A stretch of DNA of 64,000 bases, taken from positions 69,132,001-69,196,000 of the forward strand of contig NC_086108.1 in the NCBI RefSeq assembly GCF_963921235.1, written 5' to 3'. A model generated the notes under the pieces. It saw only the letters and a list, made by a program, of their open reading frames with translations. It was not told where the DNA came from and did no database searches. Both the position numbers and the translations under genes were made by a program. Below, piece by piece: positions 6,601 to 60,215 of this stretch (the first letter of the stretch is position 1; the number at the start of each line of letters is the position of its first letter). The stretch is from Mobula hypostoma. Taxonomy: Eukaryota.

Positions 6601-7529
6601 TAAATATCTCTCATTACATTCATGGGCAAACTGTTGCACTTGCAAAGATGGAACACCGGACTACCTAAGAATCATACAATAATCACAAGCGGCACGTAAT
6701 TTTTCTAGCAACAGTCGATTTTGTTTGAATTTTATTTTCAAGAGATCATAAATCTGTGAATCTCGGGTAGGAATGGAAAGGAAAATTCAAAGCTGCTCGC
6801 TTGATGAGACATGAAGTATCCCATTTGAAGTAGCCACGATGTAAAATTCAACATTTCATTTTAAAAAAAAACCAAGATTGTTTGCTGCACTCACAAGATG
6901 CTGCAGGAACTCAGCAGATCAAACAACATCGATGGAAGGAAATGAACAGTCGCCGTTTCGGGCAGAGGCTCTTGCGTTTGTGTGCGCTGCTCCAGATTTT
7001 CTACAACGGAGTTGCTCTTGTATCTCCACACACGAAATATATTTCCAAATTTTCCTTTATTCACACTTTTCTAACGAGAGGCATTTTTTAAATACATGTT
7101 GGAAATTTTCCAGAAAGAAAAAAGTTTGCCAATTTTAACTTTCCGGGGGGAAAGGAAGATCGTTCCAAATGACTACTGGTAAACTAATCTTCATTTGGAG
7201 CATACCAGACAACCCGTTCTTATTCGAGAGGTTGTATTGAAGAGGACTTTAGGGGGATTGCACTAACTGTTTATAGAGGCGGCGTGAAAGGTTAAATTTG
7301 TAAGGTTTTCCAAGCTTTTACTGCGAAGGGAGGATTTTGGGCTTCACAATGATAAAAACTTTGAATTGCCAGGAATTCTGTTAATTAGCTGATACCCTTC
7401 ATTGAAATAAAATGAAGAACACGAATTAGAATTACCCCCAGTCCTCAGCGCCAACTCGCCTGCCTTGTATCCATGATTCCTGAAGTAGCATTTCCATGTT
7501 CCCGTACTCTGGGTTTCATGAGACAACGC

Positions 7530-7700
7530 AAGCCCACAGCCGCAGTCTGACGAGTAAACACGTTACGCGCCTCAGCGCGAAACGCGGACTGAGAGGAATC
7601 CCCGGCTTCACGAGACTTTAACTTGTTACGTCACAAAAGCCGGGATGTGTGTCAGAGGGAGGTCGATATCGTTCCTGCTCCGAGGGCAAACGTAGGCTTG
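7530..7700. promoter_or_regulatory. CpG-rich promoter, probably for the + strand EGF-TM gene and possibly bidirectional
   Basis: The clearest non-repeat CpG cluster in a CpG-depleted window. It has an E2F-consensus GCGCGAAA (7575-7582) and a CRE/ATF-like TTACGTCA (7626-7633), and lies just upstream of a strong donor CAG|GTGAGA at 7884/7885. Confidence 0.65.
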
Positions 7701-7790: not shown

Positions 7791-7884
7791 ATGTATACTC
7801 AGGAGGGCGGTTCTCTACAACTCAATTTTGGGAATCGTGGAGAATCGAAGTTGAGTAAAAATCAAACAGAAGTGAACAGAGCAG
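7791..7884 (+). CDS. Putative first coding exon of the EGF-TM gene (MYTQEGGSLQLNFGNRGESKLSKNQTEVNRA)
   Basis: ATG has A at -3, with an in-frame upstream stop. The frame is open to a phase-1 GTGAGA donor that matches the phase of the EGF exon. It contains an NQT sequon. No signal peptide is seen, so this exon could be UTR instead. Confidence 0.45.
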
Positions 7885-8299
7885 GTGAGAATTTTTCCTC
7901 ATTTTTTCTGTATAAAGAATTTTGCAATCCCTGAATAAAAGTTTGTTTATTCACAGATTTGTAAATAAAAGTCAATGTTAATTGCAAATTAACTTCATTT
8001 AACTATATAATTTTGATTACCCCTGTAACAGCTTTACAAATATTTAGCTGAATAATTTAGGTCTATTAAAAATTTAGTTTATTTGTTGTAAAATTTTTTG
8101 AATTAGCTGGATGAGATGGAGATTCAAGGGAGTATTTGGACTCTGCAATAAGATGTAAATCGGGTGTGTGAGTGAAACATGGCAATGGCTTGGGAAGTGT
8201 GAGAGTCACACATTTTAATAGAGGAAATCAAATGTCTATTAGTTAAATAGACAGAAAATGCAGATGAAGAGAGCTACGTAAAGTTATTATAGAAGTACC

Positions 8300-18623: not shown

Positions 18624-19493
18624 CAGACATTCCACCCTGCAAAAACTCATTTCAGGGAGGTAGCACCATCAATTTGCGGGAGACCTCCGGGAGAGGTGGG
18701 ATGTCTGCAATGGAGTAGCTCCTTAGCAGCTGGCCAGCTAGTTTAAATAACATTAGCTATGCTAATGAACGAATGACACCTGTTAAACTCACCTCAACAC
18801 ATCTTTTACAGACTTCACCCACCATGGGCGATAGAAAAGTCACCGTTGCAAACAGTGCAGTGAGCAACACTGTCATTATTTTGACCCCTATTACGCAAGG
18901 GTACACTTTAGTGTAGTCTGGGGTGACGTACGTTTCATTTTTTTTGGAACACTCTGTCATGGCGCGCGCACGCGCGCTCTCTCTCTCTCTCGTGGTCGCT
19001 CGCGCGCTCTCGCTTCCTTTCTCGCTCTCTCTCGCGCGCGCGCTCTCTCTTCCTTTCTCGCTCTCTCTCGCTCGCGCGCTCTCGCTTCCTTTCTCGCTCT
19101 CTCTCGCTCGCGCGCTCGCTTCCTTTCTCGCTCTCTCTCGCGCGCGCTCTCGCTTCCTTTCTCGCTCTCTCTCGCTCGCGCGCTCTCGCTTCCTTTCTCG
19201 CTCTCTCTCGCTCGCGCGCTCTCGCTTCCTTTCTCGCTCTCTCTCGCTCGCGCGCTCTCTCTTCCTTTCTCGCTCTCTCTCGCGCGCGCGCTCTCTTCCT
19301 TTTTCGCTCTCTCTCGCTCGCGCGCTCTCTCTTCCTTTCTCGCTCTCTCTCTCGCGCGCGCTCTCTCTTGCTTTCTCTCGCTCGGTCTCAAAAAAATTGA
19401 TTTCCGTGATATTGTATATAATTTGCGGGCATCAGGGAGCCACTATTAATATGCGGGAGATTCCCGGAACTTCCAGGAGAGGTGGGATGTCTG
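18624..19493. mobile_element. Non-autonomous DNA transposon (P- or hAT-like) with internal minisatellite
   Basis: TIRs CAGACATTCCACC and GGTGGGATGTCTG; 7-bp TSD ATCTATG at 18617-18623 and 19494-19500. Confidence 0.8.
18962..19385. repeat. CT/CG-rich minisatellite (~34-36 bp unit CTCTCGCTTCCTTTCTCGCTCTCTCTCGCTCGCGCG)
   Basis: Directly visible tandem array of about 11 units. Confidence 0.9.
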
Positions 19494-20359: not shown

Positions 20360-20500
20360 TAATTAAGGAGAAACTTAGCTGTGGCGTCGTACCTTGTCTG
20401 AACCATGGCAAATGCACTGCATATCCATTTAGTAGACTTGGATTCCTGTGTATTTGCCCTCCTGGATTTTATGGAGATCTTTGTCAACATCGCTCAGCAG
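20360..20500 (+). CDS. EGF-like domain exon (VIKEKLSCGVVPCLNHGKCTAYPFSRLGFLCICPPGFYGDLCQHRSA)
   Basis: TTGTTTCAG acceptor and GTAAGA donor; 141 bp, phase 1-1. Six Cys in the canonical C-x4-C-x-N-x-G-x-C...C-x-C-x2-GF-x-G-x2-C pattern. Confidence 0.92.
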
Positions 20501-31082: not shown

Positions 31083-31849
31083 GTACGAGATAATTCCCAG
31101 TATTGTAAATTTTGTGCTATGTGAATCACTGGAAATGTATATGGGATGAATAATATTCTCATTGTCAACCCTCCAGATTGCACCATCAAGCTTTCAAAAA
31201 AAACTTTAAGATTTGTTTAAATCCATCACCAGCTACTTGTAAATCAAAGTCTCCACGATTTCCCTGTCCACGGACACGAACTCCTTGTCCACGGACTAGC
31301 ACATATCAGGTAGGGAATACAAGAAATATTTCCTTAGATGTATAAGAAATATTTTAAATTACTTTTAATGTAGAAATATCCGTTATCATTTATATTCATT
31401 GACCTTGGAAAAAGAAAATGCAGTATTAATTTCCCGGAGACCTGGTGTTTTGCCATTTGTGTCATGGTTTTATTAGTTGCAATTTGAGTCTGTGTGCCAA
31501 TAGAAATGTATAAATCATTTTTGTTAGTGCTGTAGTATCATTGACCACAATGTGATTTTCTTAGTATCCATTGGAATTCATTAGCTCTTTTTAAAAAAAA
31601 ATTGAAATCCAAATTAATTTTATATATTAAAAATAGAGATCTGATCTGGTCTTTAATTTCTGGAGCATAAAACTTACTTCAGGTTAACCTAAATGGGTAA
31701 GGTTGATGAACAGAGCATGGATCAGCACGTGGAATTATAACACTGTGGCTAATTGGCCATTAGTGAGACTTGGGGCTTCTTAACCAGGGCCTTGTATCCC
31801 TTGAAAACCAAAGTCCCTCAACATGTTTGCCTTGCCTTTTATTCTGACA

Positions 31850-38950: not shown

Positions 38951-39861
38951 TTTATTTTTTGGAAATGTTCAGCAGGTTAGGCAGAATCTGGGGAAGTAAA
39001 CAGGTAAATTGCTTTGTCTGCAGCAGAACAGGTGATTTCTGCTATCAGTCATCCTCCCATACTGTTGCCTCAGTTTTTATCTTTCCATTGGGACATCCTG
39101 ACCTGTTTGGCATACCCTACAACCCTACGGTTTGCAGCCTTTGCTTCTTGGTCTCGAGCTGCCCTCGGTTTCTAGCTGTGGTTCAGTTTTTCCCTTTATG
39201 TCACTATCAATTAGATTAGCACTATAATTTACCCCTATGGCAAACCTTACATTACTCTTTCAGAAGTATTCTGGATGCCCTTCCATCCTCCCCTGCCCCA
39301 CACACTCTCCAACTTAAAACTACTTACCTTCGAGTTCCAATGAAGAGTCTTTGACCTAAAACATTAGCTCCCATAGGTGCCTTTCACCCGCTATATATTA
39401 GAAAATTTAATGATTTCATTTAAGATTATCAGTATCAGCAGCTTTTCTTCTTGATTTGGGATGCCTGGTTGGCACAAATGGGTTCTAATCAATCAATCTG
39501 TTTATTGTTATGGCTTGTCACTGTTGTTCAAATACTAAAGGCAGAAACTCCACTATAAAATCCTCATCTTCTCTTATGAGCTTCTCTGATGTTGGTAATG
39601 CTGTTCCAGTGGGGAGAATTTAGACTTGTAAATAACTGAAATCATATCAGGAATAGACTGAAAAGTTTTGACATACTGTTTAGAAAATATTTTCATTCAT
39701 GAAAATCTGGCTTTACATTAATCTGCCTCAATATGTTAGGTTAGAACAAATGCAGTCTGCATCTGTATCAAACTGAAGTATAAAAAGACATCCTTTTTTT
39801 TTAAAGTTCTAGTTATGTTTCCAAATCTCATTCATTTAATTATGAAAAATATATTTTATAG

Positions 39862-39970
39862 GAAAGCTGTAAAAGAAGAGACAATACAAATCCATTTGAA
39901 CCTGAAAATGCTGACTTTCTTCGATGCGGCACAAGAAATGACCCACGTCAATACAATCCTGAATTGACTG
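39862..39970 (+). CDS. Cytoplasmic exon (ESCKRRDNTNPFEPENADFLRCGTRNDPRQYNPELT)
   Basis: ATTTTATAG acceptor and CTG|GTATGT donor. Only the phase 0-1 frame is open throughout. Confidence 0.7.
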
Positions 39971-41125: not shown

Positions 41126-42181
41126 ACAATGTTGTCTTCTCTATCAACATTTGCTGTATGATTACATTGTGCACCACCTAATTCTGTGCTGAAATACAAA
41201 TAAAGTGGAACAAGTTTAATGCAAACAACAGGAATTCTGCAGATGCTGGAAATTCAAGCAACACACATCAAAGTTGCTGGTGAACGCAGCAGGCCAAGCA
41301 GCATCTATAGGAAGAGGCGCAGTCGACGTTTCAGGCCGAGACGCTTTGTCAGGAACAAGTTTAATGTTTTGTTCTGTGGTATGTGATCTTACTGATAGAG
41401 TTTCCAGCATTAATATTGCATAGTGCTTAATTAGCAAGTGTGTGTGGACCTGCAAAAGGCTCAGAATGTTCCCTCTTCCTAACTTCTAGCTGACTCTTCC
41501 ACACCTTATTGCATCTGTAGTAAGAAAGTACAACATGAGCTGGATATTAGAAGGAAGTGTGGCTTACTTATTACTTTGCCCCACTACTAGACATCAAAAC
41601 CAGTGATAATCCCTAGCCTCGTGTCAAGGGTGCAGACACACTTCACACCTAACCTCCTTAAACCATTTCCAGCTGGCATATCTGCTACTATCATTCATTT
41701 ACTGGAGTGGCTGATTTCATATTCAAGAAGTTTTTTTTTGTTCAATCTTCTGTTTTGTAATGTACTCATTAGCTGAAGTTTGATGCATTTTAAATAAATT
41801 GTTTTGGTAGCCATCTTTTAAATTATTCAATTAAATTTCATTGTTTTATGTTGTCATTCATTATCAACCATTTAAACACAATGAAGTAGGCCTTTGACAA
41901 TAACAGCTGTGGAACGGAGACTGCAAAGTAATTGAGAGTCGCAAGTCTGCAAAAGGTTAATGTGGCTATGGATCTCATGTGGAGCTGAGCCTGCACAAGG
42001 GTTGGGGGTGTTTGGGGCTTCATTCAGACATAACTCAGCTCAGCACCACACTTAAACTCGTTGATTCAGGACGCAGAATTTGGAAAAGTTGGAAAGAACG
42101 TTGAAAGAAGTGTTCATCCTCTTTCTCACTTATTCCCTTTAACAACATTTGAGCTCGGGAAATCTAATTCATTGATTTCTA

Positions 42182-43071
42182 TCTCCCATTGGGCAAGCTC
42201 ACAACATAAAACATTGGCTTCCAATTTCCCCCTAGTAAAGGCAGCTACATTAGGCCATTATTTACTGACTACATCTCTACATTTAATGCTATAGTTCCAA
42301 GCAAATACTTCTCCAAACTCCTAGACCTGCGACTCAATACCCCGCCTTTCAAATGGACCTCGACTTCCTGACCAACGAGCCACAATCAATATGGATGGGC
42401 AGCCACACCTCCACCATGATTATTAATCCCACATGGCTATGTCCTTGGACTGCTTTTCTACCCCCAATACACTCACAACTGGTTAGCCAAATTCTGCTCT
42501 GAACATTTACAAAGTTTGCAGATGATACTACCGTAGTGGACACTGTACCTCAAATAATAATGAGTTGGAGTACAAGAAGGAGATGGAGAACAGAGTGATG
42601 TGGTGCCATGCCAACAACGTCAACGGCAGTAAAACTGAAAAGCTGCTCATGGACTTCAGGAAGATGTGGTTTCGACATACCTGCTCCTTACGTGAAAGGT
42701 GCTGAGATAGAGAGCTTCATGTTCCTAGGAGTGAAAATCACCAACAGCCTACCCTGGTCCAACCATATAGATGCAATCGAGTGTTTCGGGGGTAGAAAAG
42801 CGGTCCAAGGACATAGCCATGTGGGATTAATAATCATGGTGGAGGTGTGGCTGCCCATCCATATTGATTGTGGTCCGTTGGTCAGGAAGTCGAGGTCCAT
42901 TTGAAAAGGGGGGTACTGAGTCGCAGGTCTAGGAGTTTGGAGAAGAATTTGCTTGGAACTATAGCATTAAATGTAGAGATGTAGTCAGTAAATCATGGCC
43001 TAATGTAGCTGCCTTTACTATGGGGAAACCGGAAGCCAATGTTTTGTGTTGTGAGCTTGCCCAATGGGAGA
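42182..43071. repeat. Long inverted repeat with ~293 bp arms
   Basis: 42182-42474 is the reverse complement of 42779-43071, with few mismatches. Confidence 0.92.
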
Positions 43072-43946
43072 CAGGAAGCTCACCAGCACTTTTACTTCCT
43101 CCAGTAGGCTAAAGATATTTGGCATGTCCCCTTTGACCCCACCAAAGTTTGAACTGTAGAAAGTATTCTATTCAGATTCATCACAGATTGGCAAGGCAAC
43201 TGCTCTGTCAAAGGAAATGCATAAGTTATGGCCACAGCTCAGCACATTACAGAAACTAGCCTCCCTTCCTCTGTCTACACTCTTGTTTCCTCAGTAAAGG
43301 AGCCAGCATGATGAAAGACCCACCCAGCCTGGACAGTGTCTCATTTCCCTCTCCCATCAGCCAGAAGATACAAAAGCCTGAAAGCACGTTCCACCAGGAT
43401 CAAGGACAGCTTCTCTCCCGCTGTTATAAGACTATTGAACCATTCTCTTGTGAAGTGAAGAGTCCACTTCAGTGTACAATCTACCCTTCTATGCTTTTTC
43501 ACCTCACTGTCTACCCTGAACTTCCTCTGTAACCTTAACACACGATACTGCATTCTATTATTGTCTACCCTGAACTTCCTCTGCAACCTTAACACATGAC
43601 ATTGCACTCTATTATTGCCTTACCCTTTTCTCCCTCAGTGCACTGTTGCAATAAATTAATCTGTATGAATGGTCTGCAAGACAAGTTTTTCACTGTACCT
43701 CTGTGTATGTGACAATAATAAACCAATTTACCAATTGCATAAGCTATTCAACAATGCAGAAATGTGAATAAAAGACCCATAATTTGCACCTCATGCTCAA
43801 AGATCTGGATATTAAATCCAAGTTCTAAAATTGTGCATTTATTTAATGCAGAAAATTGTGACATAGATCTAAAGGGAAAATAAGTACCTGCTTAGAAAAT
43901 AGAGCATACTTATACTGGTGATGTATTCATTTCCTTTCTTCAACAG

Positions 43947-44024
43947 CCACACCAAGCTCTGTTGCAACTTTTCAACGGACTAATAAAGTAGAAAGAAGCG
44001 CTGGAAGCCATGGCCCATGCCCAG
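43947..44024 (+). CDS. Repeat exon 1 (ATPSSVATFQRTNKVERSAGSHGPCP)
   Basis: Pyrimidine-rich acceptor TTTCTTCAACAG and CCAG|GTACTC donor; 78 bp, phase 1-1, ends in PCP. Confidence 0.75.
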
Positions 44025-48319: not shown

Positions 48320-48397
48320 AAATTCAACCAAGTATTGCTCCAGAGGAAAATCAAAGAAAATCTTCATCACACAGCATAAGCCAAAGTCCATGCCCAG
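48320..48397 (+). CDS. Repeat exon 2 (EIQPSIAPEENQRKSSSHSISQSPCP)
   Basis: CTCTTTTAG acceptor and CCAG|GTAATC donor; 78 bp, phase 1-1. Confidence 0.78.
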
Positions 48398-48800
48398 GTA
48401 ATCATTAATCTTGCAATGTACATACCATGAAATTTATAAAGTACATATATGCTTTAATCATTGACATATTAAATATTACTTCACCTAACATGTTAACAAA
48501 GAGAAAATATTTAAAAGTCAAAACATGGTTTATTGTCATGTGCCTGTATTAATCAACTTTACCTTCTGAAATGATAGGGAATTCAATATGTACATTAATC
48601 TGGTATAAATGTCCATAATTTACATTTTCTTCCCAGAGATATGGGCATAAACAATAAGGAAAATTTAAGCTCAATTACCATTCATCTATGCTAATTTTAA
48701 AACTGACAATGATTATCACAATTACTATAAATAAAATATATATTTATTTGATTTAAAGAAAACAGAATGCACATGTGATGTAATTATACTATTTATGCAG

Positions 48801-48887
48801 CAGTGAAGCAACACTCTGCTGCCTGTCAGACTGATCCAGAAGCCATAGATCAAAAATCACACATCGGAAGCAAAAGTCCATGTCCAG
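48801..48887 (+). CDS. Repeat exon 3 (AVKQHSAACQTDPEAIDQKSHIGSKSPCP)
   Basis: TTTATGCAG acceptor (NAGNAG) and CCAG|GTACTG donor; 87 bp, phase 1-1. Confidence 0.8.
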
Positions 48888-51800
48888 GTACTGATTCTAC
48901 CTAGTACATATTTAACATATCATGAAGTACAGAATGTCTTTGTATACTTTCCTAATTGGCACAAAACAGCAATTTATAAAATGGTATGGTTCTAATGTGT
49001 GCTAATTACAAAGCAGGCTACAAGTCATTTTGGTAAATTAGCCCACATCTGCATATTTCTGTTATTGTTTCACCAATATATTTATGCATATAGTTATATT
49101 TATTGAGTAACCTATTTGCAATAGAATAAAGCAATGCGAAGAGCTGATTATGGAGTATGTCGTCACAATGCCGAAAAATACTTTGAACTAGCCCATTGCA
49201 ATAATATAAGCTAGCAGCAAATCTGAGCTACACTTTGTATGTTTGTGCACAGGTGAGATTGTTTAATGTCACTGTTTAATGCAACAGTACATCCAGGAAT
49301 ATGCAAACATGTAGACCTACTTGACAAAAGATCTACGCACGTTCTAAGATGGTCCATTGTGTCAATGCAAATTTATACGGTTCAAATTGACTAAATCCAA
49401 CAACATGATGTTTGCATTTTCCTAAAGCTTAGGTTTTCTATTTAGAAGGTTATTTAGAGATTAATATATCTCCATAGATTTGAATACAAAGTCCTTATGA
49501 CTTCTATAAAATGGAATTCGGTAAGATGAACATATGAATCCAAATTTCAACCACAAGTACAAAATTAATAAACCTCTGGGTAAATTCAGTAATGAACTAA
49601 CTTTTAAAAATTAACTCTGGATCACCAGTTGAACTGCTTTCACCTTTTGATTTATTTTGTTACCTTTAGTGACACATTCCATTTACATATTAGGGTATAC
49701 CAAGAAGGGATGAAGGCTTTAATACAGATACCATCCTCTATTTATTAGTTTGCATTTATAACTGCAATAAAATAAGTGCAAAACACAGAGCACAAGCTAC
49801 ATCATCAAGCAAATGAGAGCCGCAGAAACAAAATTGTATTTAAAAAATTAAGGACAGTTAAAAATTGGAAAATATGCTCCTAAAAATGCATCCACATCAT
49901 TCCCAAGGTGCCCAACACCATGAAAATGCATTTCAATTTGATGAAAAGAATATTATGCACTTACAAGTGTATAAATATCTAAATGTTTCGCCAGGATATT
50001 GGTAAACAGTCCAGAAAATAATGCTTATATCAGGCAGAAAAATGTTAAATCCAGAAAGCTGAGTTTATTGTCATAGGCACAAGTACATGTCTGCACAGGA
50101 GCAGTGGGAAACTTCCTTGCAATAGCATTACAGGCACATATTACATAAGCAGCATTTACGATAAAAATTAACTAAATATTAATTAAACACAATTTTTACC
50201 AGAAATAACACACTTGGAACCAAAACAGTTTGTTCTAGTGCAAAGTGGTCAAAGTAGTCATAGTGTTGCTAAACCCTAGTGATTAGGGTTTTCTTCCTGG
50301 TTTAAAAACAGCTTTAAAAAGCTGTTCTTGAACCTGGTGGATTGGGACTTCAAGCTACTATATAGCTTGCCAAATGGTAGCTACAAGAAGATGTCATGGC
50401 CCAGATGCTAGGAATCTTTAGATATTTTCTCAAATGTACTGTTATATTAGTGAAAGCTATGGAGACATTATACTCGCAATTACCTTATGAGTCTATCAAT
50501 GGAACTCATTCGGATATCCGTTGTTCCCTAATTTAGCTGACAGGACATTCTGACATAACTTTTCCTAATGGATATTTCATTTTTGAAATTTCTCACAGAG
50601 GATGCCATTGGGTCACATTTACTACAGCTATTGAGAGAAATGAGGGCTGCAGCACAGCCTAGAGCTCTGATGTGACAACATGAAAATTTGATGAAGAAAA
50701 CTTTAAAAAAAAAAGAGGAAAATATTTTTCTAAAAAAAGCATTTCATTGAGCTTTCGGAAGCAAATTGACGCCTGAAAATGTGCTATTTGTTGAACTTAT
50801 TTGATGTTTTCAAGACCAAATTGGCCAGGAGAAAGTGGCGGTAGAAGGTTGTTTTTCAGGCTGGAGGCCTGTGACCAACAGTGTGCCGTAGGGATCTGTG
50901 TTGGGACCACACTTGTTCAACATTTGTATTAAGGATTTTGGATGAGAATGTTGGTGGGCTTAGTCAGTTTATGGATGAATCTAAAATCGGTGGTATAGTG
51001 TTCAGTGAAGATTATCTAAGATTCCGTGAAGTCTTGATCAATTGAACCAGCAGGCTGAGGAGTGTCTGATGGAGTTTATTTCAAATATATGCAGAGAGAG
51101 AGAGAGAGAGATTGACTGACTGACTGACTGACTGACTTTGGGTACAGGTACATAGTTCCTTTAAAGAGGTGACGCAGGATAGGGTGGTGAAGAAGGGTTC
51201 GAATCATAAGGAGTGGCTGAACTTTTTTTCCCTGCAGTGGAGGAGGATGAGAGGTGATCTTGTATATGTATATAAATCAAAAAGGATATTAATAAGGTGA
51301 ATAGCCACAGTCTTTTTCCAAGGGTAGGGGAGTCCAAAGCGAGAGGGCATAGGTTTACATTGAGTAGGACAAGATTTAAAATAGATCCAAGGTGCAAATT
51401 TATCACACAGAGGGTGGTGCTAATATGAAATGAGCTGCCAGATGAAGTGCTTGGGGCAGGTGCAGTTAATATATTTGGAAGACATTTGGACAGGTATACT
51501 GATTGGGAAGGTTTAGGGCTAAACACAGACAAATGGGACTAGCTTATGTAGACAAATTAAGCAGCGCTGACAAGTTGGGCCAAAGGACTTGTTTCTGAGC
51601 TCTATAGCTCTTTGATTCAAACGTGCGGTATAGCCATGGTAAGTTCAAATGCCTCTGTATGAATTGCCATCCAAAAACAATAAACTATTACAATAAAGTC
51701 CATGACGATAATATATAAGAACGTTCGAACACATCATTCTCCTCTGGTATGAACTCATCAAAATTGCTTTTAAAATGCATAGGATATTTAAAATGTACTT

Positions 51801-52000
51801 TAAAATGGTATAAATGTCCATAATTTGCATTTTCTTCTGGGGGGTCTTGGGGTAAACAATTGGAAAACCTAAGGCCAATCAGCATTCATCTGTGCTCATT
51901 TAAAACTGAAAATGATTGTCATAATTACTGGAAAATAAAATATATATTTGATTAAATGACAGCAGAATGCACGAATGATGTAGCTTTATTATTTATGCAG

Positions 52001-52096
52001 CTGTGGAACAAAGCTCCGTTCATTGTCAGACTGACTCTGAAGCTGTTGATCAAGAAATATCCACATCTCATATCAGAAGCAAAAGTCCATGTCCAG
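52001..52096 (+). CDS. Repeat exon 4 (AVEQSSVHCQTDSEAVDQEISTSHIRSKSPCP)
   Basis: TTTATGCAG acceptor and CCAG|GTATTG donor; 96 bp, phase 1-1. Paralogous to repeat exon 3. Confidence 0.8.
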
Positions 52097-52289
52097 GTAT
52101 TGATCCCACCTAGTACTGTACATATTTAATGCATTGTATATCATTAGGTACAGAAGTTTTTAAAGCTTTTCTAACTGGCAAAATAGCAGTATAAATTGAA
52201 TCAAAATCAGGTATATCATATATCACTGACATATGTCATGAAATGAGTTGTTTTGCAATACATCATAATAAAAACTAAATTACTGCAAG

Positions 52290-52302
52290 TGTGTGTGTAT
52301 AT

Positions 52303-52354
<52 letters not shown>
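52290..52354. repeat. (GT)/(CA)n microsatellite
   Basis: Directly visible. Confidence 0.9.
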
Positions 52355-52356
<2 letters not shown>

Positions 52357-53304
52357 ACTGTAATTTACAATTTACATGGCTTCATTGTCCATTCAGAAAT
52401 CTGAAGATGGTGGGGAAGAAGCTGTCCTGAAATGTTGAGAGTGTATCTTCGAGCTCCTGTACCAGCTCCGTGACGGTAATGATGGGAAGGGGACCTGTCC
52501 TGGGTGATGGGGTTCCTTAATGATTGATGCCACCGTTTTAAGGCATCACCTTCTGAAGCTGTCCTGGATGCTGGGAAGGCTAGTGCCATGATGGAGCTGG
52601 CTGAGTTTACAATTTTCTACGGCTCTGTTCTACGGTGATGCAACCAGTTAGAAGGCTCTCCACACTACATCTGTACAAATTTGCGAGTGTATTTGGTGAC
52701 ATACCAAGTCCTCTCAAATCCCTAATGAAATATAACTGTTGTCGTACTTCCTTTGTGATTGTATCAGCATGTTGGGCCCAGGACAGATTTTCAGAGACGT
52801 TGACACCCAGGAACTTGAAGATGCTCACCCTTTCCACTGCTGATCCCTCGATGACGACCAGCGTGTGTTCCCTTGACTTCCCCTTCCTTATGTCATTTCC
52901 CTGGTCTTAGTGATGTTGAGTGCAAGGTTGCCGTTGTGACACCAGTTAACCAGCTGATCTATCTCACTCCATATCACCTCCTCATCACCATCTGAAATCC
53001 TACAAACAATGGTTGTGTCGTCAGCAAACTTATAGATGCCGTTTGAGCTACGCCTAGTCACGCAGTCATGGGTGTAGAGAAAGTAGAGCAGTGGGCTCAG
53101 CCTGAGGCGCTCCAGTGTTGATTTCAGCAAGGAGGAGATGTTATTTCTGATCCACACTGCCTGTGGTCTCCTGGTAAAGAAGTCAAGGATCCAATTGCAG
53201 ATGCAGGTACAGGGGCCAAAGCTTTGGAGCTTGTTGTTTTGAACTGAGTGTATGATTGTGTTAAACACTGAGCTGTAATCAATGTCCAGGTGATCCAAGG
53301 TCAA

Positions 53305-53877
53305 GTGAGACCACACCTGGAGTATTGTGTGCAGTTTTGGTCCCCTAATCTGAGGAAAGACATCCTTGCCATACAGGGAGTACAAAGGAGGTTCACCAGA
53401 TTGATTCCTGGGACGGCAGGACTTTCATATAATGAAAGCCTGGATGAACTGGGCTTGTACTCGTTGGAATTTAGAAGATTGAGGGGGGATCTGATTGAAA
53501 CGTATAAAATCCTAAAGGGATTGGACAAGCTAGATGCAGGAAGATTGTTCCCGATGTTGGGGAAGTCCAGAATGAGGGGTCACCGTTTGAGGATAAGGGG
53601 GAAGCCTTTTAGGACTGAGATTAGGAAAAACTTCTTCACACAGAGAGTGGTGAATCTGTGGAATTCTCTGCCGCAGGAAACAGTTAAGGCCAGTTCATTG
53701 GCTATATTTAAGAGGGAGTTAGATATGGCCCTTGTGGCTACGGGGATCAGGGGGTATGGAGGGAAGGCTGGTGCAGGGTTCTGAGTTGGATGATCAGCCA
53801 TGATCACAATAAATGGCGGTGCAGGCTCAAAGGGCCGAATGGCCTACTCCTGCACCTATTTTCTATGTTTCTATTTC
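53305..53877 (+). mobile_element. Young 5'-truncated CR1 nested in the Rex-like LINE
   Basis: Uninterrupted ORF2 C-terminus (VRPHLEYCVQFWSP..KNFFTQRVVNLWNSLP) and a TTTCTATG tail; flanked by AAGTG. Confidence 0.88.
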
Positions 53878-56800
53878 TAAGTGGAGAGCCAATGAGGTTG
53901 CATTCGGTGTAGACCCATTGTGGCGATAGACAAATTGCAGTGATCCAGTTCCTTGCTTAGGCAGGAGATGATTCTAGTCATAAGCAATCTCTCAAAGCAT
54001 TTCATTACAGACGTGAGTGCCACTGGGCGATAGTCATCGAGGCAGTTCACCCAGCTCCTCTTGGGCACTGGTATGATTATTGCCCTTTTGAAGCGGGTGA
54101 AAAACTCCAAATGCAGCAGTCAGAGATTGAAGATGCCCTTGAACACACTTGTCAGTTGGTTGGTACAGGTTTGCAGAGACAGAGATCATAGCATCACCAG
54201 ATTCTGTCATGATTCACACAAGCGTAGTTTTATTCTCCCTTTCAAAGTGTGCCTAAAAGGCATTGAGCTCATCTGAGAGTGAAGCATCACAATCATTCAT
54301 AACGTTAGGTTTTTCTTTGTGGGAAGTAGTGATCTGCAAACCCTGTTAGAGCTGATGTGCATCAGATTCCTCTCGCCTCAATTGGATATTTTGCTCTTAA
54401 AATAGCCTTCCATTGGTCATACCTGGATGACTTGTATAGTTCTGGATCACTGGTCTTGAATGTCACAGATCCAGCCTTCAGCAGACTAGGAATCTCTTGG
54501 TTCATCCATGGCTTTTGGTTTGTGTATGGACTGTATGTTCTTGAAGGCACACATTCACCCACACAGGTCTTAATGAAGTTGGTAACAACTATTACGTATT
54601 CATTCAGATTCAAGGATGAATCCCTGAATATTGTCCAGTCCACCGACTCAAAGCAGTCCTCTGCCTCCCTTGACCATACCTTCTTGGTCACCACTGATGC
54701 TTTGATCTTTAGTCTCTGCCTATATGCTGGGAGTAGAAGTAGAGCCAGGTGAATGGACCTTCCAAAGTGTTGGTGTGTGATGGCACAGTAAGCATTCTTG
54801 ACTATTCTGATAACAGTGGTCAGGTGTGTAGGCTCACTCCTCTGGTTCCACAGGTGATATGTTGGTGGTAGTTGTTCAGAGTCTTCAAACTGGCCTGGTT
54901 GACATCCCCCACAATGATAGGGAAGGCATCGGGATGTGCTGTTTCATCCCTCTCATTAGGATGCTCAACTCCTCCAGTGCCTGCCTGACGTTGGCTTGAA
55001 GTAGAATGTACATCACTACCAGGACAATAGTGGAAAAATCTTTCAGCAAATAAAAAGATGACATTTGACCACTAGATGTTCCAGGTCGGGTAAGCAAGTC
55101 TGAGACAGAACCATCATGTCTGTGTGCCATAATGAGTTAATCATAAATCATACACTATTTTCTCTACCTTTATAAGACCGAACTATCCTTTCTTTGTGGA
55201 GAAAGGTAAAGCCATTGGGCTACAATACCTTGGCTGAAATGGTGGGTGATAGCCATGTTTCCAAGAAGCAAAGTTCACAGCAGTCCCTCTGGTACAGCAA
55301 TCTTGCTCTGAGGTCTTTAATTTTATTTTCCAGAGACTGTAAATTCACTAGCAGAATAATTGGGAGTGGGCATCACAGGTCCTGATGTCAAGGCATTTTG
55401 GTAAAATCATGCACGTTGTTTATTTCTGGGTTTTTTTTTGGCCAATATAATAGTGTATGTAGTTGCATTTATTGAATACCCTGTAGTGCAATTGGGTAAA
55501 GCAACGAGAAGAATATTTCTGTCCGTATTGTCTGATTGTGGAATACATATTCACAGAAAGTTGAGTTTGTATACTTTTAACTGTCATAACGTGTAAATGG
55601 ACAGCAAATCTGAGCTTCACTTGATATCTTTGTGCATGGTCGAGATTATGTAATGAAATTGTTTAACAGAGCAGTTCAGCTGGCACTAAGCAGACCTAAA
55701 CAACAAAACATCTACAGGTGTTCGAAGATGGTCCAATGTATCAGTGGAACATTTATAAGGCCTAAATTGTCCAAACCCAAGCATGAGATGACTGCACTTT
55801 CTTAAAGCTTGGTTTGTTCCATCTAAAAGGTTATTTAGAAATGTTTATGATTCCATAGCTTCAAATACAAAGTTCTTATGATTTTTGTAAAATGGAATTT
55901 AGTGACAAGAGTGTATTCATCTGAATTTCAACCACTAGTATAAAATTAACAAACCTTTGGACAAAGTCAGTTATGAATTAACTTTTGAAAATTTACACCT
56001 TGAAACTTATTGAAACCACTTTCATCTTCATTTATTTTGTTGCTCTTAGCAACACATTCTATTTAAGTATGAGGGTGTACCCAGAAAGAGTGAAGATTTC
56101 AACTGACATGCTCGCATTTATTTTATTAACACTGCTTTTATGAATTAAATTCAAACTTTGTCCGGATATTTTTTTTTGACCTGTTTGTCAGGGCATTTCA
56201 GACCCATTACTTTCCCCAAAAAAGATTCGCAATGGAAATATTATTGGGACACGTTTATAGCTGTTAGGGAAATAAAACCAGTGCAAATAAAGGGTACATG
56301 GTACATAATCATGAAAATGATAACAAAGTACAATAAGAAGAAATGTTAAAAAATTGAAAAGTATTTTCCTGAAAATGCATTCATATCGAACTATTGGTCC
56401 CTAATACCATAAACTGCATTTCATTTTGATGAAAAGAATAGTATGCATTTACAAGTTTGTGAATTTCTAAATATTACTGCCAGGATACTGATAAAATAAT
56501 CTAGCAAAATTTGTGTTTATTTCAGGTGGCAGTTCCTTAAAGCACAAAAGTTGAGTTTATTGTCATATGCACATGTATGCATAAGTGCAATGAAAAACTT
56601 CCTTGCAACAGCATCTCAGGTTTATATCATTACATAAGCAACATTCACAGGAAATAAAAATTAATTAACAATTAACAACATTAAAAAGAACAATTGGAAC
56701 ATTTTAATGCAAACTGATCAAAGTGTTCCTGATTGTGCTAAACTCTAGTGATTAGGGTTGTGTTGGATGGTTCAAGAACTGAATGGTTGAAGGGAAGTTG

Positions 56801-58361
56801 AACCTAGTGGATTGGGACTTCAGGCTATTGTACTTCCTGCCTGATGGTAGCAGAAAGAAGACGGCATGGCCTGGATGGTAGGGATCTTTGATAGACGATG
56901 AAGGATATTTCACTCAAATGTACTGTTATACCAGTGAAACCAACCAAGGTATTGTACACACAATTACCTTATCAGTCTAGCTATATAACTCAAATCAGAT
57001 ATCATTTTTCCCTTTCTGATCTGACAGGGCAGTCTGACAAGCACAAGAAAACCTGCAGATGCGGGAAATCCACACAACACTTCCTAATAAATATTTCAAT
57101 TATAAAGGTACTCACTGAGAATCTTGTTGAGTCACATTGAGAGCACATTGACAGATTAGAGCCTGAAGTGTCGGCAGTTGGAGTAAAACATGAAAAATTG
57201 CTTTAAAAAAGGAAGCATTCTTCTAAATGAGATTTCATTGAGCTTTCAGAAGCAAATTGGTCCCTAAACACATTGTATGAATTTATTATGTTTTCCAGAC
57301 AAATTTGGCTAGGAGAATGAGTGATGGTTGAGGCTTGTTTTTCAGATTGGAGACCTGTGCCATAGGGATCTATGCTCGGTATATTTTTGTTCATCATTTG
57401 TATTAAGGATTGATGAGAGAGTGGATGGCATGGTTAGTAAGTTAATGGGTGATACTAAAATTGGTGGTAGTGAAGAAGGTAATCTGAGATTCAATGGGAT
57501 CTTGATCAACTCAGCCAACGGACTAAGGAGTGGCTGATGGAGTTTATTCCACATGTATATGCATAGCTGCATTTTGGCAAGACAGGCCAGGCCAGGACCT
57601 GCAGGGTAAACAATAGGGATTTAAGAAAGTGGATTTAAGATAGACCTAGGATGCAGGTTGATAGTTTCTTGAAAAAAAGCAGCACAATATAGGGTAGAAA
57701 AGAAGGCTTTTAGCACACTTGCTTTCATTGGTCTGGATATTAATTATGGGAGTTGCTACATCATATTATGGAATGCAAGATGCCTGCAATGCCACATTTA
57801 GAGTACTGCGTGCAGTTCTGATCACCCAAATGCCAAAAGAAGGATACCATTAAACTTGAACGAGCACCAAGAAGATTTTTAAGTGCATGTTACTGGGGTT
57901 TGAGACAAGCTCAGGTATGCAGATTAATCAGCACAGATGAGTTGAACTAAAGGACTTGTTTCTGTGCGGTACAGCTCAATGAGTTAAACATTTAAACTTG
58001 GCAAATTCATATTCCTCTCTATATGTTGTCATCTAAAAGCAATATAATATTCCAGTAAACTTCATGATTACAACATGCAAGAACTATGAACCCATGTCAT
58101 TCTCCTCTGGAAATACATGGAATACCTTCTGAAATGCATAGGATATTCAAAATGTACATTAATCTGGTATAATTGTACGTAATTTGCTTTTCTTCCTAGA
58201 AGTCTGGGTATAACAGTGAGAAAATCTAAGCTCAGTTAGCATTTGTCTTTGCCGATTTAAAACTGACAATGATTATCTTAATCACTATAAAGTAAAATAT
58301 ATATTTATTTGATTTAAATAAAGCAGAATGCTCAAATGATGTAATTGTACTATTTATGCAG

Positions 58362-58457
58362 CAGTGAAGCAACGCTCTGTTAAAAGTCAGACTGATCCGG
58401 AAGATGTAGATCGAAAATTATCTCTATCACACGTCAGAAGCAAAAGTCCATGTCCAG
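58362..58457 (+). CDS. Repeat exon 5 (AVKQRSVKSQTDPEDVDRKLSLSHVRSKSPCP)
   Basis: TTTATGCAG acceptor (NAGNAG) and CCAG|GTACTG donor; 96 bp, phase 1-1. Paralogous to repeat exons 3 and 4. Confidence 0.8.
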
Positions 58458-60215
58458 GTACTGATCCTACCTTGTACATATTTCACACATTGCAGTTTAT
58501 GTCTTTGTATGCTTTTGTAATTGACATAAAATAGCAAATTATAATTTGACCAATTATAAAATTGTATGGCTCTAATGAATGCAAGTATACAGAGCACAAC
58601 AAGAACAGGCAGCAAGGCATTTTGGTAAATTAGTCCACAATACTTATTTCTGTTCTTGTTTCACCAATATGATTATGTATATGGTTGTCTTTATTGAATA
58701 ACCTATATGCAATTGGGTAAAGCAATGAGAAGAGATTTTCTCTACGTATTGTGTGATTATGAATTACACAGTCACAGTGCACAGAAATACTTTTAAGAAA
58801 CCCGTCACAATAGCCTATAAACCAGCAGCAAACCTGAGCTTCACTTGATTTTGTTGCACACCGCTGAGACTGTCATTGTTTAATGGAACAATTCATCCAG
58901 CATTAAACAAACATACAGACCCAATCAACAAAGGATCTACTGTGTTCAACAATGGCCTAGAGTGTTAATGAAAGGTTTGTGATGTTCAAATTGATGAAAC
59001 CCAACTATATTCTGGATGATTGCACTTTCTTAAAATGGGCAGCTTCTTAATAACTTCTATTTAAAAGGTTATTTAGAGATTATTATAGTTCCATAGTTTT
59101 GAATACAAAGTCACTATGATTTTAATAAAAATAGGAATTAATAAGAATATATTAAAATCACTTTAAGCCACAAGTTCAAAATGACCAAACCTTTGGACAA
59201 AAACAGTTTTAAACTAAATTTTGAAAATTAACAGAGTCACCTTGTTGTAATGTTTCATCTTTTGATTTATTTACTTGCCTTTATCAACACTTCCCATATA
59301 AATGTTTAAAAAAAGGGTTTAATTGAGGTAATATGCTTTCATTTATGAAATGATTGCTGCTTTTTAATGAATTGAACTCAAAACTTTGTCCAGTTGTTTT
59401 CTCTTGACCTGCTGGACAGGGAATTGTTTTTCCATTACTTTCTCCGAAGAGGATTCACACTGGGAATATTATTGGGTCACACTTATAACTACTGGGGAAA
59501 TTAGGTCAATGCAAAGCACAGGACACAGAATCATGCAAATGAAAGAAGGAAAGCACAATATGATAAAAACAAAGCAAAAAGAAGGGATGTTAACAAATTG
59601 TATAACATTCTCCTGAAATTACATCCATATCATACCATAACACCATAAAAATGCATTTCATTTGGTGAGAAGATTATGCATGTGCAAGTGTATGAACATC
59701 TGAATGTTGCTACCAAGACTTCAGTAAAATAGTCTAGCAAAAATTGCCCTTATTTCAGGTGGAGGATACTTAAACCCTGAAAGAAAAAGGAGCACTATAC
59801 CTGACGAAGGGTCTTGGCCTGAAACATCGACTGTTCTCTTTTCCATAGATGCCGCCTGGCCTGCTGAGTTCCTCCAGCATTTTGTGTGTGTTGCTTGGAT
59901 TTTCAGCATCTGCAGATTTTTCTCTCATTTCAGATTAAAGATTAGTTTTATTTGTCACATATTCATCGAAACAAGTAGAAAATGCATCATTTGCATCGCA
60001 TCAAATCAAATCAATGAAGTTTGCGCTGGGCAGCTGCAGGTGTCACCACACTTTTAGCACCAATATAGTGTGCCCAGAACTCATTACCCCTAACCTGTAT
60101 GTCCTTGGATTGTGGTAGGGGACCGGAGAGCCCGGAGGAAACCCTCGCGGTCACAGTGAGAACATACAAACTCATTACAGACAGTGGTGGAAATCAAACC
60201 CTGATCTTATTGATA

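Follow-up and report, generated by a model that had tools for sequence, protein, structure and literature searches.

Three exons of the gene LOC134354888 in the devil ray Mobula hypostoma each encode an octamer ending in Q-T-D: HSAACQTD, SSVHCQTD and RSVKSQTD. They lie in the window analysed here, a stretch of 64,000 nt of contig NC_086108.1 (positions are window positions unless marked as beyond the window), and the first-pass annotation of this DNA had proposed that they form a multivalent array of binding sites for the dynein light chain LC8. The gene structure, an array of ten short repeat exons, the triplication of repeat exons r3 to r5 together with their introns, and the lack of the motif in the examined orthologues were established. 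The octamers are plausible as LC8 sites, with binding predicted by motif scoring, and the explanation that we hold with moderate confidence is that they are weak, recent and incidental sites, restricted to one lineage and multiplied passively by exon duplication.

The NCBI model of LOC134354888 (P0001/P0009) was retrieved by a sequence search with an exon neighbouring the octamer exons; its exons matched the window and genome stretches beyond it letter for letter, and it sets the reading frame. The repeat array has ten exons, r1 to r5 inside the window and r6 to r10 beyond it, all with AG/GT ends and lengths divisible by three. Exons r3, r4 and r5 are of phase 1-1, and the octamers stand in frame on the plus strand at the identical codon position in each, as had been reported; QTD was found in these three of the ten exons only. 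With the same phase, lengths divisible by three and, for r3 to r5, a common intron, the repeats are tandem duplicates of symmetric exons. Judged from sequence, the element common to them is an S-P-C-P-like end rather than QTD: a related end closes all ten Mobula repeat exons and is also found in skate and electric-ray repeats. The linkers between the three octamers are 21 and 24 residues long, with the Q residues 29 and 32 apart.

All three octamers are present in all eight listed NCBI isoforms, which skip other repeat exons but never r3 to r5. The number of sites is therefore constant and nothing supports dose control by splicing, which leaves the proposed dose-dependent dimerisation without backing. 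Contigs of sequencing runs guessed to be RNA matched 58359-58457 and 39860-39969 without mismatch and carried other sequence beyond the splice sites; among the matches listed they covered r5 and the exon at 39862, not r3 or r4, and they represent contig edges at splice sites rather than directly read exon-to-exon joints. One-residue differences among the NCBI isoforms were seen at r3, r8 and r10, and tandem NAGNAG acceptors at the repeat exons at 48801, 58362, 70831 and 78405 (the last two beyond the window).

The octamers were said to lie in low-complexity polar sequence; the tail that holds them is predicted to be cytoplasmic and disordered. The protein is probably oriented with its N-terminus outside and its tail inside, because the EGF domain precedes the membrane helix and basic residues follow it; no signal peptide was found. 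A search of Pfam found no domain in the tail, a disorder proxy from composition was below zero (-0.03 for r3 to r5 and -0.07 for the whole repeat region), and the mean predicted local distance difference test (pLDDT) of the Atlas model, again a proxy for disorder, was 0.38.

Exon duplication did add sites, as had been suggested. Because r3 to r5 were copied together with their introns, the recurrence of QTD does not represent three independent events. The spacing of 6361 bases between r4 and r5 is explained by an insert of about 3.2 kb in the second duplication unit. That a fourth QTD exon was once present near 55 kb and then lost was ruled out, since the 6.4 kb spacing equals one unit plus the insertion, and a genome search with r5 and its flanks gave three copies only, among the best candidates. 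Invariant columns among the copies made up 63 of 87 in the exon (72%) against 172 of 232 in the upstream intron (74%). A neutral simulation was run in which one exon evolved at the upstream intron rate (5000 runs). All three copies kept QTD in 0.13 of the runs, QT in 0.29 and some three-residue run in 0.92, and 16 of 28 residues were invariant where 14.6 were expected (p 0.36). Retention of QTD in the three copies is thus not above neutral (p about 0.13). The last six residues of r3 to r5, which adjoin the splice donor, were kept above neutral drift (p 0.015). In shuffled tails a loose LC8-like anchor occurred 0.52 times per shuffle on average, and four loose anchors had p 0.002, a value that is unusable because the copies were treated as independent.

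Clear orthologues of LOC134354888 were found in skates, electric ray, sawfish and sharks, with weaker matches to the EGF and helix part in coelacanth, paddlefish and lamprey; no functional name was attached to any family member found. The orthologue set contained 12 proteins from Leucoraja, one from Amblyraja, one from Rhinoraja and 16 from Narcine, and, among the sharks, one from Scyliorhinus, four from Heterodontus, two from Heptranchias and one from Pristiophorus. Some of these models were partial or fused, and orthologue exon borders were taken from protein repeats; the sawfish gave a C-terminal fragment only. No LC8-compatible x-Q-T-D was found in the repeats of the eight other species whose repeat region was seen. 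The annotation had named preferential conservation of QTD in orthologues as its own test, and conservation failed in all eight. Since the motif is missing from the skates, the electric ray and the sharks that were examined, it probably arose recently, as a by-product of duplicated exons and not as a design conserved across species. These relatives manage with a site-free version of the protein, so zippering by LC8 cannot be central to how it works.

The Mobula QT column aligned over QTKA or QAKA of skate and electric-ray repeats, in short, low-scoring alignments, so QT was likely inherited while the favourable flanks are likely new. In Narcine a single QTD lies close to the membrane, flanked by proline at both -1 and -3 (counted from Q). 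A shark AACQSD that resembles r3 was not taken as homologous; it closes a different exon and carries S at +1. Nor is LDKSQTD in the C-terminal region of skate and bamboo shark a conserved site, being QSD or QAD in other species. The C-terminal exon (beyond the window, offsets 102907-103617, loci L007-L008) showed 60-63% identity among ray and shark sequences; it has a conserved L-M-x-x-Y-F box, shared with coelacanth, and nearly invariant last 20 residues. Two sharks end in E-T-D-V, which we take to be a class I PDZ-type end, and the final valine is lost in rays. The conserved function of the tail likely resides in the C-terminal 280 residues, and perhaps also in the S-P-C-P ends, rather than in the QTD sites.

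Compatibility with LC8 was scored on the octamers. With C, C and S at -1, the three anchors all depart from canonical TQT. The ELM pattern LIG_Dynein_DLC8, which had been suggested as a check, has K or R at -3 followed by TQT, and CQT, CQT and SQT with A, V and V at -3 do not match it. LC8Pred (PMC6607443) was rebuilt by hand from the residue counts in its Table S4, with the offset taken from the CTTNBP2 octamer (17.16 and 5.83) and with cut-offs of 12.9 for the amino-acid score and 0.1 for volume-polarity, the latter with a stricter mark of 2.7. The rebuilt formula returned 17.4 and 16.9 for published scores of 17.16 and 17.80; varying its assumed background frequencies by 30% left the outcome unchanged. 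An alternative pseudocount formula gave 13.2 and 9.5, missing the published scores, and was dropped; once anchored, it too placed all three sites above 12.9. In the approximate rebuild, r3, r4 and r5 had amino-acid scores of 14.6, 14.9 and 14.3 and volume-polarity scores of 5.0, 2.4-3.5 and 5.5. All passed both cut-offs, and two or three passed the stricter mark. LC8 is described as disfavouring small residues at -3 and bulky residues at -2, and in the human scan of 378 with LC8Pred, 8 CQT octamers passed as predictions (PMC6607443). A literature search on CTTNBP2 with DYNLL1 returned no title on binding. The Mobula genome has two LC8-type genes.

Modelling with LC8, another check that had been suggested, gave a weak positive. 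The complex was predicted from four LC8 copies (identical at 87 of 89 positions to one ray LC8) and two copies of residues 222-300, and it scored 0.54 where the best of three controls scored 0.04, with run agreement of at least 71% and a partner pLDDT of 41-42. Among solved complexes 51 of 78 reached the mark used, as did 2 of 108 mismatched pairs; scores of 0.60 or less that reach it came from only 5 of the 78 solved complexes and from all 4 passing mismatches. Many solved structures are of LC8 with a peptide, and the score may be a recall of these textbook complexes. The result should be read as likeness only, because such structures are abundant, the calibration set held no peptides or disordered chains, and the controls included no QT mutant. 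In published work on LC8 sites, AlphaFold gave 8% to 28% false positives (PMC12057147). The prediction offers weak support for LC8 binding by the r3-r5 tail.

Nup159 is a multivalent LC8 client. ASCIZ/ATMIN, Chica/FAM83D, GKAP and KANK1 are like the Mobula tail in having several QT-type octamers in a disordered region, where a ladder of two chains and LC8 dimers is predicted, and unlike it in being soluble and in having measured binding; the Mobula sites are predicted and belong to a membrane protein. The Mobula sites also differ from those of these clients in that none is TQT, they are near-copies that each arose with its own exon, and orthologues lack them. Canonical TQT is not strictly required, as SAO-1, GKAP and KANK1 bind without it. 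The nearest precedent for r3 and r4 is SAO-1 of C. elegans (pointed to by PMC12797016), which binds DLC-1 through a CQT anchor seen in a crystal structure; through two non-canonical sites it engages two LC8 dimers, giving a 2:4 complex with a dissociation constant of 0.5 uM (PMC9630320). The SAO-1 anchors are only 12 residues apart, against the wider spacing in Mobula, and have an in vivo phenotype, where binding in Mobula is predicted. Kir4.1, a membrane protein, has its LC8 site in a disordered cytoplasmic region, as is predicted for the Mobula protein, and its peptides bound LC8 only when dimerised; it differs in having a single site whose TQT is conserved in every orthologue examined except one, contrary to Mobula (PMC11999606). 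MAG, another membrane protein that binds LC8, is listed in Table S4 of LC8Pred (PMC6607443). In ASCIZ, mid-length linkers of 6 and 9 and long linkers of 30 and 41 residues were studied, and even linkers of 12-16 may favour mixed complexes (PMC10046861); the Mobula linkers fall between the mid-length and the long ones.

The explanation we favour starts from a single-EGF membrane protein whose tail grows by phase-1 exon duplication. An ancestral ray repeat would have had Q-T-K-A at the QT column, and later changes to C or S at -1 and D at +2 would have made it compatible with LC8. One exon likely gained a weak site in the devil-ray lineage and was then copied to three, and the outcome would be a predicted low-affinity, probably incidental trivalent LC8 client. 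At each site an LC8 dimer would weakly take one strand from each of two tails as added beta-strands. Tethering at the membrane would help this weak binding, and the clamping of the two tails would be loose because of the linker lengths.

Several observations weigh against this explanation. LC8 binding of the octamers may be nil: C stands at -1 in none of the 79 training binders counted in Table S4, where SQT is found in 4 of 79 binders against 5 of 32 non-binders, and in calorimetry 12 of 19 anchor peptides picked by a position-specific scoring matrix failed (PMC6607443). The claim that C is tolerated at -1 has the SAO-1 structure on its side and not the training set. LC8Pred also passes 12% of anchor-containing non-binders at the 12.9 cut-off (PMC6607443). 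These figures and the lack of TQT point to an alternative that we consider unlikely, though still a serious one, in which the octamers are look-alikes with no binding at cellular concentrations and the repeats are a disordered spacer. Its selected content would be the R/K-S-x-S-P-C-P end, likely a target of proline-directed or basophilic kinases or a place of cysteine modification, in keeping with the excess conservation of the last six residues and the recurrence of a related end in Mobula, skate and electric-ray repeats. The kept exon end may, however, be a splice-signal rather than a protein constraint, and a pure look-alike sits poorly with three octamers above both cut-offs, with the CQT anchor of SAO-1 and with KANK1, in which several weak sites bind cooperatively (PMC12803091).

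The remaining points against incidental sites concern the neutral comparison. The residues invariant in all three octamers, S at -4, Q, T and D, are at LC8-favoured positions, and the tolerant -2 position differs in all three. Pairwise ratios of nonsynonymous to synonymous rates (dN/dS) among r3 to r5 were 0.18, 0.36 and 1.13, from few sites, and mild purifying selection may be compatible with them; the downstream intron flank was less alike among the copies (43 of 75 columns invariant). With a faster neutral rate, such as these two results would allow, the simulated fraction would fall below 0.13, and a test on three copies has little power. No stingray, eagle-ray or manta orthologue turned up in the protein searches. 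A selected multivalent array new in myliobatiform rays, with each added exon forming one rung that zips the tails and tunes signalling or trafficking, would agree with one site per exon at a fixed position, with all three sites passing the predictor rebuild, with the constitutive inclusion of r3 to r5, with the weak complex prediction and with dN/dS below 0.4 in two of three pairs. Set against it are the absence of the sites from all eight other species, retention that is not above neutral, sites in only three of ten repeats, linkers longer than the 6-9 residues of homogeneous ASCIZ ladders (PMC10046861), and a valency unchanged across isoforms, and we regard it as improbable. That the devil-ray tail gained LC8 valency exon by exon and is now a selected three-rung zipper dimerising an orphan EGF membrane protein is likewise doubtful.

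Known multivalent LC8 clients are old and do not show how such clients originate. If the Mobula sites bind, they provide a before-and-after series, from Q-T-K-A repeats in skates and electric ray to one motif exon and then to three copies; if they also form a selected zipper, the birth of a multivalent LC8 client could be dated in a natural case, and skates and sharks, which lack the sites, would be the controls. Should they fail to bind, the array would be an instance of the usual turnover of repeats in disordered tails, and the finding of greater use would be a vertebrate family of EGF membrane proteins, unnamed so far, whose C-terminus is conserved. This family (LOC134354888, LOC129700943, LOC116977805, LOC119964595) has a single EGF domain, a helix, lineage-specific repeat exons and a conserved C-terminal region, and the QTD triplet is found only in its Mobula copy. 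Literature searches, largely outside subscription papers, returned nothing on LC8 with multivalency and exon duplication, nor on the locus identifiers of the family.

The product of LOC134354888 has, in order, a short N-terminus, one EGF domain, one membrane helix, a region of cysteines and basic residues, and the tail, which is made up of two unique exons, the ten repeat exons, two further short exons and the 280-residue C-terminal region. The features inside the window are listed in the table.

Features of LOC134354888 and of its duplicated region in the window
Feature	Position	Strand	Basis
Probable true first coding exon, without signal peptide	7791..7885	+	13/31 positions identical to skate N-terminus, ungapped; donor GT next
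First coding exon in NCBI model	19451-19480	+	NCBI model
Single EGF-like domain exon, phase 1-1	20360..20500	+	Pfam PF00008, E 1.8e-8; P0009 residues 11-57
Transmembrane exon, then cysteine cluster and basic residues	30986..31082	+	NCBI model mapping
Juxtamembrane exon, phase 2-0, sets frame of every downstream exon	31177..31309	+	Splice scan and NCBI model
Tail exon, phase 0-1	39862..39970	+	NCBI model; contigs of runs X1 and X4 span whole exon
Repeat exon r1, 78 nt, without QTD	43947..44024	+	NCBI model mapping
Repeat exon r2, 78 nt, without QTD	48320..48397	+	NCBI model mapping
Three tandem exon-plus-intron duplication units of ~3.2 kb, 68-74% identical over 0.4-1.3 kb blocks	48560..59783	+	Self-BLAST, repeat finder
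Repeat exon r3, 87 nt; HSAACQTD at 48812-48835, Q = residue 232 of P0009	48801..48887	+	Sequence and model
Repeat exon r4, 96 nt; SSVHCQTD at 52012-52035, Q = residue 261 of P0009	52001..52096	+	Sequence and model
Insert of ~3.2 kb in second unit, largely high-copy repeats	52200..55388	.	Self-BLAST gap; very high contig depth at 52159-54141
Repeat exon r5, 96 nt; RSVKSQTD at 58373-58396, Q = residue 293 of P0009	58362..58457	+	Sequence and model; run X1 contig

The real coding start is probably the exon at 7791-7885, and the first exon of the NCBI model is probably wrong. A CpG-rich stretch near 7500-7700 closely precedes the upstream exon. This exon encodes K-x-Q-T (7857-7871), which is kept N-terminally in all orthologues with an EGF-type start. 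Since x varies among N, S and H, this is not simply a glycosylation signal. Splicing of the transmembrane exon straight to 39862 was ruled out, as it brings a stop before the repeats and the exon at 31177-31309 restores the frame. ErbB-type EGF ligand precursors have an arginine directly before the sixth EGF cysteine; the EGF domain of LOC134354888 ends in G-D-L-C and lacks it, and we take its spacing to resemble the Notch/Crumbs type. Searches of Rfam across the window gave no matches, and the Protein Atlas gave no usable match for the C-terminal region.

Other expansions and variants were seen in relatives and nearby. The skates (P0015, P0022) have a separate tail array of about ten 10-residue C-L-D-P-C-S-like repeats after the repeat exons, absent from Mobula, which is a second, independent expansion. 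Most of the Narcine isoforms (P0024 versus P0009) are without the EGF domain: 11 of the 16 listed have a common other N-terminus, and one has an EGF-type start. The intron before r1 contains an inverted repeat (42176-43077) with 299-base arms, 95% complementary and 304 bases apart. Beyond the window, a tandem paralogue (like P0040/P0076) starts about 13 kb downstream on the same strand, at offsets 116443-116544 and 121163-121342 (L009), and has a related EGF domain and a different tail.

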